From Eledone cirrhosa (Eukaryota), in contig OZ024761.1 in NCBI GenBank assembly GCA_964016885.1, positions 13,330,001 through 13,394,000 on the forward strand: a DNA stretch of 64,000 nucleotides. Reading direction: 5' to 3'. Positions within the stretch are counted from its first letter, which is position 1; each line of letters starts with the position of its first letter. The notes beneath the pieces are model-generated. The model was not told where the DNA came from and did not search any database. It saw only the letters and a list, made by a program, of their open reading frames with translations. Positions 43,831 to 61,616 of this stretch are shown one piece after another. The translations under genes were made by a program, and so were the position numbers.

Positions 43831-43872
<42 letters not shown>

Positions 43873-43876
<4 letters not shown>

Positions 43877-44153
43877 AAAGTTCTATTTAAAATTGTTGGG
43901 ATACAACAAGTAAATATTTTATAACTGATATAAAGCACTCGACAAGTTTTTGGAGTAGATACACGATATTAAATAAATGGAAACTATATTTATAAAACCA
44001 TATTTATTTCATTATACATATTTCAGGGATACCAAATTAAAATATGGTATGCAAATTAAAATATGGCATACCATATTTTAATTTGGTATCCCTGAAATAT
44101 GTATAATGAAATAAATATGGTTTTATAAATATAGTTTCCATTTATTTAATATC

Positions 44154-45318: not shown

Positions 45319-45351
45319 TATACCTATATATACACTATATATAATTATAAA

Positions 45352-46069
45352 CAGGAAAGGTCAGTAATTCATTACCACCTTATTACCAGTAAGAAAAATA
45401 GCTCAATGTAAATACATCAGATGTTTTACAGAGCCGGAATATAAATTACAGAATAATCAAAACTATGTTCAAAACATTTTATTCCTGATAATCGTTTCTT
45501 CCTAACTTTCGTTTGGAATCATCGGGGCACTAGCAAAGTTTAGACATATAATTAACTTCCTATTCCACAGAACAATCGTAAAGATACGTAGATGTGAGTG
45601 TTGTCATTAACAGTGTAATATTTAAAGAGTGAAGATGATGAGGTCAGTATCAGTGGATTGCGACAAAGATTATAAAAGAATAATACAACAATTATAGAGG
45701 AATTAAAGAAGAAAGTTACTCGCAAAACGAGGACATTAGCGGTACATAGGCAAGCGTATAGAAAGAGTGCAGATGTGTTAGGCATGTACAGAATAACCAG
45801 GTAAGAATCAAGCAATGGTACTAAGCATATATATCACAGTATGGCAAATGTATCACATAATACAATACAGGTATAAAAGCATATTAAGCAGACAGAGATG
45901 CGTGGGTATGAAAAGCAGTTTCTATGAAGTTTATGAAGGTTAATTATATGGAATAGGAAGTTAATTATATGTCTAAACTTTGCTAGTGCTCTGATGATTC
46001 CAAACGAAAGTTTCGTAGAAACGATTGTCAGCAATAAATTGTTTTGAACATAGTTTTGATTATTCTGTA

Positions 46070-46075
<6 letters not shown>
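45352..46075. mobile_element. Family G element: ~130-bp inverted arms, ~380-bp spacer, tail and intact HHR
   Basis: Arms ~45440-45567 and 45948-46075. HHR (+): tgct CTGATGA(45991) ..acgaa-agt-ttcgt.. GAAA cgattg TC agca. Confidence 0.85.
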
Positions 46076-46149
<74 letters not shown>

Positions 46150-56149: not shown

Positions 56150-56369
56150 TGTCAATATTTATAAAACAAATCTTATATTTTATCTGATGAAAGCGCACCA
56201 ATGATGCCTTGGATGCCTTTGAAATATGTATAATAAAATAATTATGGTTTTATCAATATAGTTTCCATTTATTAATATATTGAATATTTACTCCAGTACT
56301 TGTTGAGTGCTTTATATCAGTTATAAACTTTTAAGCTTGTTGGAATCCCAACAAATTAAATATAACCTC

Positions 56370-56372
<3 letters not shown>
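56150..56372 (+). mobile_element. E-group HHR element with tail
   Basis: tattttat CTGATGA(56184) aag..cttt GAAA(56221) ta-tg-ta TA ataaaata, with an 8-bp stem I. Stem-loop at 56290-56308. Confidence 0.85.
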
Positions 56373-56430
<58 letters not shown>

Positions 56431-56433
<3 letters not shown>

Positions 56434-56537
56434 TTTATTAAAATAACAGATTAAAGTTTAAGCAAAGAATCGCTGCTTTCACCCTTAACGGGATCTTCTG
56501 AAACTCTTTGGATTTTAGTCTTCAAATATATTATTAT

Positions 56538-56540
<3 letters not shown>
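56431..56540 (-). mobile_element. Family L element with a near-intact HHR
   Basis: rc: agagttt CAGAAGA t-ccc-gttaa-ggg-t GAAA gca..tgc TT aaacttt, with one core substitution. Confidence 0.8.
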
Positions 56541-56589
<49 letters not shown>

Positions 56590-56596
<7 letters not shown>

Positions 56597-56888
56597 TACA
56601 AATATTAATAAAATAGATGTTCTTTTGATCAATTACATTTTATTATACATATTTCGGAGGTACAACAGTACGTCCTCATCAGACAAAATATAATGATACA
56701 TGACAAACCCTGAGATGTTAATTAAGATTTAATCAAGGACTACCTTGATTAAATCTTAACCATTTAACATCTCAGGGTTTGTCATGTATCATTATATTTT
56801 GTCTGATGAGGACGTACTGTTGTACCTCCGAAATATTTATAATAAAATGTAATTGATCAAAAGAACATCTATTTTATTAATATTTGTA

Positions 56889-56895
<7 letters not shown>
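56590..56895. mobile_element. Tail-less ~305-bp palindrome with an HHR on each strand (E group)
   Basis: attatattttgt CTGATGA(56803) gga-c-gtac-tgtt-gtac-c-tcc GAAA ta-tt-ta TA ataaaatgtaat, with a 12-bp stem I including GU pairs. Confidence 0.9.
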
Positions 56896-56943
<48 letters not shown>

Positions 56944-56945
<2 letters not shown>

Positions 56946-57128
56946 CAAATTTGATATAGAAATGGCTTCTACAGGACTAGAATTGTTTCATTTCCTGATA
57001 ATTTCCTTCGAATGAAACAGTTCTAGTCCTGTAGAAGCCATTTCTATATTAAATTTGTTGTTTACACTCTACTAATGTATTGAGTACCTTACTTATTGTG
57101 GTTACCCCCGATTGAACCCGGGACTCAC
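56944..57128 (+). mobile_element. Family A palindrome+tail copy
   Basis: The core reads CTGATAA. Stem-loop at 57066-57085. Confidence 0.8.
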
Positions 57129-57159
57129 ACATATACACACACACATATATGTATATATA

Positions 57160-57560
57160 TATAATATGGAAAACCAAGAACCAGTGATGCATCGAAACAA
57201 TTTATTAACGTATTACAAGTGTTTCTCCGGTGAACAGCTCGAGGTGCGATCTATTTGTGGATCGAACCTGACTCTGGATTCGCAAGTTCCTCAGATACGT
57301 CTAGCGACTTCGAAGCAAATCCTCTGTCTGTTTGCTTCGAAATCATTAGGCATATCTGAGGAACTTGCGAATCCAGAGTCAGGTTTGATCCACAAACAGA
57401 TCGCACCTCGAGCTGTTCACCGGAGAAACACTTGTAATACGTTAATAAATTGTTTCGATGCATCACTGGTTCTTCGTTTTCCATATTATTATACTCTGCT
57501 CTGAAGTAGCATAGAGTGCTCAACCGGCATACCGCCTATGGAAGCATCCAAGCAACCTTA

Positions 57561-57563
<3 letters not shown>
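57160..57563 (+). mobile_element. Palindrome+tail HHR element, family F (long stem II insertion)
   Basis: Arms ~57160-57490. CTGAGGA(57356), ~62 nt, GAAA(57425) ca-ct-tg TA atacg. Stem-loop at 57493-57517. Confidence 0.8.
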
Positions 57564-57647
<84 letters not shown>

Positions 57648-57651
<4 letters not shown>

Positions 57652-58062
57652 GGAGGTGAGTTTTATTGTAGTACAATAAAGCAATGCAGATATCGGATAA
57701 GAAGCACTCTACAGTTTGTAGGACTGGAGTATAAATAATATATAAGATCAAAAGATGGTTAAAAGAGTTCCATGTGTTTTATTATGCGTATTTCAAAAAC
57801 AAATATCATCATGCAATAACATTTGCGTTTTCGTCAGATAAAATAGGGAGACATGATATGAAGGTTAAAACACACTTGTGAATAGTGCAGTTTTAAATCA
57901 ACATATCAAGAGTGTTTTAAATCAATATATCGAGTGTGTTTTAACCTTCATATCATGTCTCCCTATTTTATCTGACGAAAACGCAAATGTTATTGCATGA
58001 TGATATTTGTTTTTGAAATGCGCATAATAAAACACATGGAACTCTTTTAACCATCTTTTGAT

Positions 58063-58864: not shown

Positions 58865-59030
58865 ATACAGTCCTGATGAAGGGAAATGACCCTGAAACAT
58901 GTTAGCTGTTCCTCGATGTATACTTTAGAAAATACTATTTGTTTTTAGCAGTTAAATCGAGTAGCAAAGAGGTATACGGTCCTGATGAAGGGTAATGACC
59001 CTGAAACATGTTGTCTGTTCCTTGATGCTA
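58865..59030 (+). ncRNA. Tandem pair of minimal type I hammerhead ribozymes, 109 nt apart (family H)
   Basis: acagtc CTGATGA(58873) aggg-aaatga-ccct GAAA catg TT agctgt, and acggtc CTGATGA(58982) aggg-taatga-ccct GAAA catg TT gtctgt. Confidence 0.85.
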
Positions 59031-61312: not shown

Positions 61313-61415
61313 AACGAAGGGAGTGTGGTAAGGAACCAGGTGGACCATAACGCACCGAAGTACTCAATACGTAGGGTAGTAGAGTGGGTAATAGGAAATT
61401 CCTATTACTTTCCTA
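61313..61415 (-). mobile_element. Family D tail with a tiny inverted arm
   Basis: Matches 28868-28950 and ends in gtaataggaaattcctattac. Confidence 0.75.
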
Positions 61416-61504: not shown

Positions 61505-61616
61505 GTTATTCCGGGTTGAATCGGAGGTAACCACAGTAAGTAAGGTACTCAATACATTGCAGAGTATAAAAGTTTTAATATAGATGAGATTCTACAGGAC
61601 TAGAACTGTTTCATTC
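61503..61616 (-). mobile_element. Family A 3' half plus tail
   Basis: Matches the rc of 57010-57125. A shorter tail piece is at 17467-17500. Confidence 0.75.

Follow-up and report, generated by a model that had tools for sequence, protein, structure and literature searches.

The window analysed here, a 64-kb stretch of Eledone cirrhosa DNA, is packed with short back-to-back insertions set in (TA)n arrays, and it raises the question what a small bulged hairpin of the form RCTC-stem-loop-TN-GAGY is doing in one insertion family after another. The initial annotation had quoted nine instances of this hairpin, all nine of which (9/9) agree with the DNA letter for letter in position and strand, and had proposed that it is a selected RNA structure serving the reverse transcriptase (RT)/endonuclease of Penelope-like elements (PLEs) as a cis element. 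In the insertions of the window the inverted arms stop a few bases before the motif (the short end) and the direct arms continue 41-85 nt past it (the long end). Because the two kinds of arm end at different positions relative to the motif, a second copy of the hairpin was predicted just beyond the long end before it was found. Full-length elements do hold such a second copy, which is absent from all insertions of the window and was not on the list of the initial annotation; neither was the observation that the hairpins sit on the uncopied (3') side of the ends that they mark. Since each copy sits a few bases behind one of the two insertion ends, the hairpin probably tells the element's enzyme where to start copying. 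The relevant features of the window are the following (copy 1 is the hairpin at the short end).

56290..56308, plus strand: hairpin copy 1 of family E, a Hydra-clade PLE (sequence; ORF link); hammerhead core start at 56184, long end at about 56372.
56433..56543, no strand: back-to-back insertion of family X, the left arm running to the short site and the right arm to the long site; it includes neither hairpin.
56590..56895, no strand: back-to-back insertion of family M; both arms end at the same place and it looks short+short.
57066..57085, plus strand: hairpin copy 1 of family A (sequence); the inverted arm starts near 56946 and stops about 7 nt before the hairpin position.
57493..57517, plus strand: hairpin copy 1 of family F, within the insertion 57156-57562 (short+long).
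57706..57730, minus strand: hairpin copy 1 of family H, within the insertion from 57649 to about 58030 (long+short).
42987..43010, plus strand: hairpin copy 1 of family D, for which copy 2 and a Hydra ORF are known.
28918..28941, minus strand: hairpin copy 1 of family D, within the insertion 28864-29068 (long+short).
61362..61385, minus strand: hairpin copy 1 of family D (sequence scan).
61547..61565, minus strand: hairpin copy 1 of family A (sequence scan).
43937..43956, minus strand: hairpin copy 1 of family E, within the insertion 43865-44153 (long+short).
34123..34149, minus strand: hairpin copy 1 of an E-like family, K (sequence).
34611..34632, plus strand: hairpin copy 1 of family J, with a full-length relative (L152).
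17871..17904, plus strand: hairpin copy 1 of family G (sequence).
45401..45434, minus strand: hairpin copy 1 of family G, within the insertion 45320-46077 (long+short).
41050..41089, plus strand: a further hairpin copy (scan), of a family absent from the initial annotation.

Most tails between 56280 and 57740, and in locus L265, also have another hairpin, specific to the family, in the stretch from copy 1 to the long end. Elsewhere in the window two short hammerhead-like cores stand in tandem, 109 nt apart, at 58873 and 58982 (plus strand) with no motif match nearby, and positions 39519-40500 (minus strand) hold a fragment of a non-LTR (LINE-type) reverse transcriptase.

A strict scan of the window (RCTC, at least three upper pairs, a T-N bulge and the exact complement) gave 15 matches, each of the 15 with a (TA)n run 25-95 nt to its 3' side, and 30 local dinucleotide shuffles of the window gave 0-2. 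The genome to which the window belongs (G000) was sampled with 40 evenly chosen 10-kb stretches across the chromosomes; these 400 kb contained 38 matches, of which 35 had a TA run 25-95 nt away on the 3' side and 8 had one on the 5' side, and ten shuffles of the sample gave 2-12 matches of any kind. When the length of the bulge or the stem was altered, the association with 3' TA runs was gone: in the same 400 kb a 3' TA run accompanied 5 of the 26 matches to a pattern with no bulge, 5 of 20 with a bulge of one nucleotide, 9 of 23 with a bulge of three, 4 of 18 with a non-T bulge and 2 of 57 with YCTC stems. Ranked by the asymmetry between 3' and 5' TA runs among all 4-mer lower stems tested, ACTC came first (23/23) and GCTC third (12/15); the stem ranked second is a CATA repeat artefact. 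A bulge of constant length, as originally described, is too strict a rule, because by eye one family (flank of L267) has a 1-nt bulge instead of two; the copy of this family in the window, at about 34767-34786 (minus strand), is also mismatched in the lower stem.

The carriers had been described as unrelated hammerhead (HHR) families, but all families that could be tied to an open reading frame (ORF) belong to one clade, the Hydra-clade PLEs, which have been little studied. Extension of family E in the upstream direction led to an ORF that encodes a reverse transcriptase with DKT, a CxCX5C linker and an endonuclease without CCHH, and families D, X, J and H were also joined to Hydra-type ORFs, the relative of family H in L036 being located downstream of a Hydra-type endonuclease. 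Since DKT, the CxCX5C linker and the CCHH-less endonuclease are the defining marks of the Hydra clade in the available part of Craig et al. 2021 (PMC8557442), the ORF-linked families were assigned to it. DKT takes the place of DKG in families E and D; in 49 full-length loci from marine metagenomes a three-frame regular-expression search, in which chance matches are possible, found DK[TS] in 49 and [AS]DKG in none. An N-terminal RWK/RWR is present in the G000 families and in 48/49 of these loci. P0002, six more and the alignment consensus have the CxCX5C linker, a C-terminal GIY-YIG without CCHH, and CxxC and CxH around E and N, and the CxCX5C/CCHH-less GIY-YIG feature set was found in 46/49 full-length metagenome loci. 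The carrier elements prefer (TA)n targets. With DKT, RWK, CxCX5C, the CCHH-less endonuclease, hammerhead-type motifs and (TA)n targeting they resemble the Hydra clade of Craig et al. (PMC8557442), the available text of which describes the hammerhead and a tail of 30-40 bp, but no hairpin; the tails of the carrier families are about 60-85 nt. The searches of G000 yielded no full-length copy of families A, F and G and hence no link to a Hydra ORF, and these three were assigned from the shared motif and the end geometry only.

As to the hammerheads, CTGANGA..GAAA cores are found in E, K and A and in the metagenome loci; the cores of D and X are non-canonical. The first half-core is altered in both, family X (56433-56543) and family D (L250) having AGAAGA where TGANGA is expected, and both families are very successful; judged from the sequence, these hammerheads may be variant or dead ribozymes. 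In family H the core is one base short in the window and standard in L036.

Among the PLE clades checked, the motif is, at the level of sequence, specific to the Hydra clade. Four 8-mers from the 3' half of the motif had 21 matches in the archive of Craig et al., in a test for the motif in Naiad, Chlamys, Neptune-like or Poseidon ends; four matches, in Hydra consensi, were the hairpin and the other 17 were without it (by eye; line breaks hide some matches). The motif is absent from the one Poseidon element inspected, PAc of Anolis (sequence in Fig. S1 of PMC11167929), and the covariance model described below had no match at E up to 2 near the one Neptune-like element of the window. The long PLE ORF of the window itself (36372-38862, minus strand) has a DKSG motif and a CX4CxxC linker, and by these motifs only it can be called Neptune-like; it was ruled out as the driver of the motif families, its best E-value to a Hydra protein being 0.71 and its tail being without the motif. 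This Neptune-like PLE (35630-39140, minus strand; also 19300-19800) has short and long ends of its own. Its short end is followed within a few nucleotides by an inverted repeat of another, AC-rich kind, which may be the counterpart of the hairpin in this clade and is reminiscent of the stem-loop, likewise AC-rich, of PAc. A DNA search of the genome with the Neptune-like tail gave no candidates, a result that says nothing either way.

Both in G000 and in the marine-metagenome relatives, two hairpin copies lie between the hammerhead and the ATG of full-length elements. The second copy is present in the full-length elements of family X in G000, in family D (300 pattern matches in G000, none for the reversed control), in family J (L152, just past the long end, Hydra ORF present) and, with a C/T basal mismatch, in two further families. 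In family E a pattern search for it gave no match, the pattern being too subfamily-specific; it was later found via the ORF in L258, L260 and L265-L268, and in degenerate form in L263, among 12 loci. Two pattern searches of G000 gave one spurious match and none for family A, and none in either search for family F. Six published Hydra consensi were inspected by eye: one coral and two sea-cucumber elements have a perfect motif, two have it in degenerate form, and one, which ends soon after the hammerhead, is without it. The published sea-cucumber consensus Hydra-1_Ajap has two copies before the ATG. Both copies are kept even in non-autonomous tandem derivatives of family D. These are retrozyme-like (L252, L253 and G000:C2:356030063-356031901), with periods of 257 and 299 nt, the 257-nt units retaining both hairpins and the ORF start.

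The position of the insertion ends was determined by a BLAST-based alignment of 12 references to 173 stretches of G000 (0.94 Mb), which gave 357 arms: 58 read through copy 2, 53 end off TA and 246 end at TA. Among the 246 ends abutting TA, 237 fell within two windows, 108 at site 1 (short) and 129 at the long end, and only 9 were elsewhere, although TA-rich sequence is everywhere in the UTRs of the carriers. The TA repeat begins 5-10 nt before copy 1 at 84/108 short ends and, in families with known copy 2, 5-10 nt before copy 2 at 105/111 long ends. Four ends in metagenome elements, two of them placed via a close relative, are at -6, -6, -8 and -9. Back-to-back pairs consist of one short and one long arm in 53/55 cases, with no short+short and no long+long pair, a count in which at least one arm belongs to two pairs and family M (56590-56895), the apparent exception to the short+long rule, has no reference among the 12. 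Broken down by set, the short+long pairs are 21/23 in the window plus the unbiased sample, and 14/14 and 18/18 in loci chosen on the E tail. Among the matches listed there was no RNA sequencing run that holds the element. DNA contigs of run X4 have loose TA ends at positions 1441 (-6 to copy 1) and 1521 (-4 to copy 2) of L250; since X4 may be the same organism, these ends argue only against an assembly artefact.

The metagenome relatives allowed the motif to be followed over a larger distance. From a metagenome scan with 498 Hydra-type loci we kept the best 80, which form 66 clusters at 80% identity; in most loci the RT is 42-62% identical to the reference. Sequence of 60 nt or more before the ORF was available in 43 loci, of which 28 matched the strict pattern, 11 of them twice, compared with 1 on the reverse strand; the 3' half-site was found at least twice in 26 of the same 43 regions, once in 11 and not at all in 6. 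Two full copies 43-83 nt apart are present in 17 loci. Where there is a hammerhead, copy 1 starts 42-67 nt past its GAAA, and in families E and H of the window the motif is located about 65-90 nt downstream of it. A covariance model built from 53 instances was run on 40 loci that were not part of its training rows, some of these loci being possibly close kin of the rows, and one locus being dropped for size; it had 26 matches at E up to 0.035, of which 23 were on the sense strand, and four pairs among them were spaced 59-67 nt apart. Rfam had no match in the window at gathering score or significant E-value, and in five metagenome loci it left the motif unmatched, with one chance match to mir-297 elsewhere; nor did any PLE tail motif described in the literature searched correspond to it.

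For the analysis of pairing, instances were anchored in a non-circular way, on the 3' half and the nearest upstream CTC, which gave 69 metagenome instances in 36 clusters, unselected for pairing; 8 half-sites lacking a CTC, several of which lay at the edge of a contig or at a TA junction, were left out. The first upper pair is Watson-Crick in 61/69 (CG 38, UA 22), compared with 32.7 in shuffled controls (0 of 5000) and 8 when one strand is slid by one position, and the second, third and fourth pairs are formed in 39, 38 and 32 of 69, where 17-19 are expected. Of the upper stem, which the initial annotation had described as staying paired while its sequence changes, the first pair is the only one kept nearly always, and the stem is often just 1-2 bp long. 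The A-U to G-C change at the base of the lower stem is seen among the families of the window's genome only, the metagenome relatives keeping G-C (58/69; 45/53 in alignment A3), and the three CTC/GAG pairs, since they never vary, say nothing on covariation. In alignment A3 the covariation score was 0.353 versus 0.157 (0 of 500), and slid controls scored 0.02-0.16. A quick RT tree with 38 rows, all Hydra-type, requires 7 changes in the C-G/U-A state of copy 1, at least 4 of them forced by well-supported branches, when only rows with either pair are counted. Covariation supports the view that the structure is selected, and together with the fixed distance to both kinds of insertion end it supports a putative cis element of the PLE RT/endonuclease.

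The motif extends beyond the hairpin to an unpaired 3' ACUCU and to a U/A-rich (UAUA) stretch at -8..-5, these positions being U, A, U and A by majority or near-majority; ACU follows the motif in at least 67 of the 69 instances, and the bulge is UU, UC or UA. The 3' GAGCACT is kept as sequence. Free folding was unremarkable (z -1.82 to +0.14 in 10 folds) and RNAalifold predicted just the four lower pairs. The profile of the hairpin is that of a small protein-recognised element and not of a stable fold. Pair asymmetry does not identify the folding strand, since G-U pairs are not in excess of A-C (5 vs 7 at the second upper pair). In alignment A3 GAGY together with the RCTC that follows is close to self-complementary, and the 3' strand could therefore change its pairing partner or join one copy to the other. 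Among the Hydra hammerheads in File S2 of PMC8557442, several have a stem III that resembles the lower stem of the motif. Pairing of the motif with the hammerhead stem III was ruled out, stem III of family E being an AT palindrome and the motif ACTC/GAGT; so was the possibility that the motif itself is a hammerhead ribozyme, as alignment A3 contains no CUGANGA/GAAA core and its basal pair is G-C in 45/53, not A15.1-U16.1.

How could two hairpins determine two ends? For the Poseidon element PAc, Frangieh et al. 2024 (PMC11167929) found that the RT begins at two neighbouring internal sites, which delimit the tail, that both strands of the target are extended and that RNA on the 3' side of the start sites is required; the RT is a predicted dimer. 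We apply this mechanism by analogy, the Poseidon precedent being without such a motif, and think it fairly probable that the RNA has two docking sites for the protein, that these define two internal sites of priming, and that the Penelope 'tail' is the result. Transcription from tandem copies would give the order ORF, 3'UTR, hammerhead, UA-rich site 1, hairpin 1, about 40-65 nt, UA-rich site 2, hairpin 2 and next AUG; the layout from the ORF to the next AUG, with two UA-rich sites and two hairpins, is observed in the sequence. The PLE protein would bind each hairpin, and the endonuclease, if it acts like the Poseidon enzyme, would nick both strands of the (TA)n target. A nicked end would then pair with the UAUA 5-8 nt 5' of a hairpin, where the insertion ends are observed, and prime cDNA in the direction away from it, with site 1 serving one target strand and site 2 the other. 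Such a course would result in the observed pattern, a back-to-back insertion with one tail-less end and another end that carries the tail and hairpin 1, and hairpin 2 would stay uncopied at the tailed end. The simplest cause would be a two-protomer complex on one RNA, with one protomer per hairpin. We are inclined, with some reserve, to believe that across animal phyla the hairpin pair holds two RT-endonuclease protomers on one RNA, each priming one (TA)n strand at the internal UAUA 5' of its own hairpin.

It is possible, but in our opinion unlikely, that the hairpin acts in DNA, the endonuclease recognising cDNA or extruded donor DNA, cutting at TA 5-8 nt upstream and trimming longer cDNAs to the two ends. 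Craig et al. credit the tail to endonuclease resolution (PMC8557442), and Frangieh et al. (PMC11167929) report that the endonuclease of Drosophila Penelope depended on the tail in plasmid DNA; the sites consist of TA, the endonuclease's own target, and there is no G-U strand bias. The Poseidon start sites, however, come from RNA-templated initiation and coincide with the limits of the tail (PMC11167929), at the junctions the fresh (TA)n arrays are joined in the polarity that priming would produce, and a loop that varies from 5 to 26 nt with paired changes would be unneeded by a double-stranded DNA site.

The constant position of the ends 5' of each copy would also be expected if the hairpins were RNA cleavage sites, protein-assisted or for a host nuclease, which generate two RNA 3' ends for end-primed reverse transcription, and the likeness of the lower stem to hammerhead stem III (PMC8557442) points in the same direction. 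We regard this as improbable: the motif consists of about 5 bp and a bulge, without a catalytic core, and G-C dominates at the base, where a hammerhead needs A-U. Poseidon uses unprocessed RNA (PMC11167929), and cleavage alone fails to explain that each site is used once in nearly every inverted insertion.

In the metagenome loci the ORF usually starts 18-35 nt past the end of copy 2, and this closeness, with the conservation of the 3' GAGCACT as sequence, would suit a translational operator or an internal promoter just before the AUG, the ends following from nearby TA-rich sequence. As the explanation of the motif such control of expression seems quite improbable to us, since the AUG is about 65 nt away in family D and about 45 nt in family J, whereas the distance to the ends stays at 5-10 nt, and the 9/246 ends elsewhere are few for UTRs that are TA-rich throughout; the motif may have a role in translation in addition to setting the ends. 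That it is a neutral remnant shared by descent, as the confinement of ORF-linked carriers to one clade could suggest, is very hard to believe of a motif which is kept with RTs 42-62% identical to the reference in most metagenome loci, in coral and sea-cucumber consensi and in both copies of the family D derivatives, while flanks are 57% conserved per column (core included), and the paired changes of which recur on the RT tree.

We return to the reading in which the two hairpins set two priming sites, and compare it with known systems. A hairpin recognised by an RT is already known in kind; one that is duplicated and accompanies two internal start sites on the side left uncopied appears to be new. 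No earlier description of the hairpin was found in the openly accessible papers and preprints searched. The 3' tail stem-loop of stringent LINEs such as the eel UnaL2 lies 5' of the reverse-transcription start site. Like our motif it is a small bulged RNA hairpin near the RT start, needed for retrotransposition, but it is single and inside the copied 3' tail, whereas the Hydra-clade hairpin is duplicated and on the uncopied 3' side (PMC1636434). A LINE-type single hairpin inside the copied tail does not fit the elements described here, with two copies, each 3' of the end that it marks. PAc is similar to the carriers in that two internal sites bound the tail; it differs in that initiation takes place inside an AC-rich stem-loop, in that it belongs to a different clade, and in that the available text identifies no binding motif (PMC11167929). 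Hepadnavirus epsilon shares the order of lower stem, bulge and upper stem, is bound by the RT and sets internal initiation (PMC5541001, PMC8903280). It templates protein priming from the bulge, whereas in the Hydra clade target DNA would putatively act as the primer, 5-8 nt outside the stem; a comparison of the sequences of epsilon and the motif showed no likeness. The minimal hammerheads of PLEs and non-LTR retrozymes have in common with the motif the terminal region and the tandem non-autonomous derivatives, but the motif is downstream of the hammerhead, is without a catalytic core and is unmentioned in the available parts of PMC4209133, PMC7229834 and bioRxiv 2026.07.22.740005.

How Penelope-like RTs choose internal start sites has been an open question, and so has the origin of the one-ended tail and the inverted repeats of their insertions. 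Telomerase has its closest relatives in the PLE RTs, and for this reason an RNA structure that positions an internal template bears on the evolution of template definition. The in vitro work on PAc, in the part available, mapped two start sites and not the signal (PMC11167929); the hairpin is a small, mutable candidate for such a signal. A genome-wide first look at G000 gave 58,037 candidates for the Hydra endonuclease, with many open Hydra ORFs of 709-778 aa, some in tandem, far above the few families reported for the clade. An intact ORF has 709 aa in family X and 760 aa in the family of L150. These many open ORFs are material for testing the role of the hairpin, and the hairpins give a rule for annotating the true ends of Hydra-clade elements. 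RNA-templated insertion tools could make use of a portable hairpin at which target-primed copying begins within an RNA. If the proposed role is true, the hairpin would be a sequence-defined start-site signal for the RT of a telomerase-related retroelement, and the direct cause of Penelope insertions with a tail and inverted repeats.
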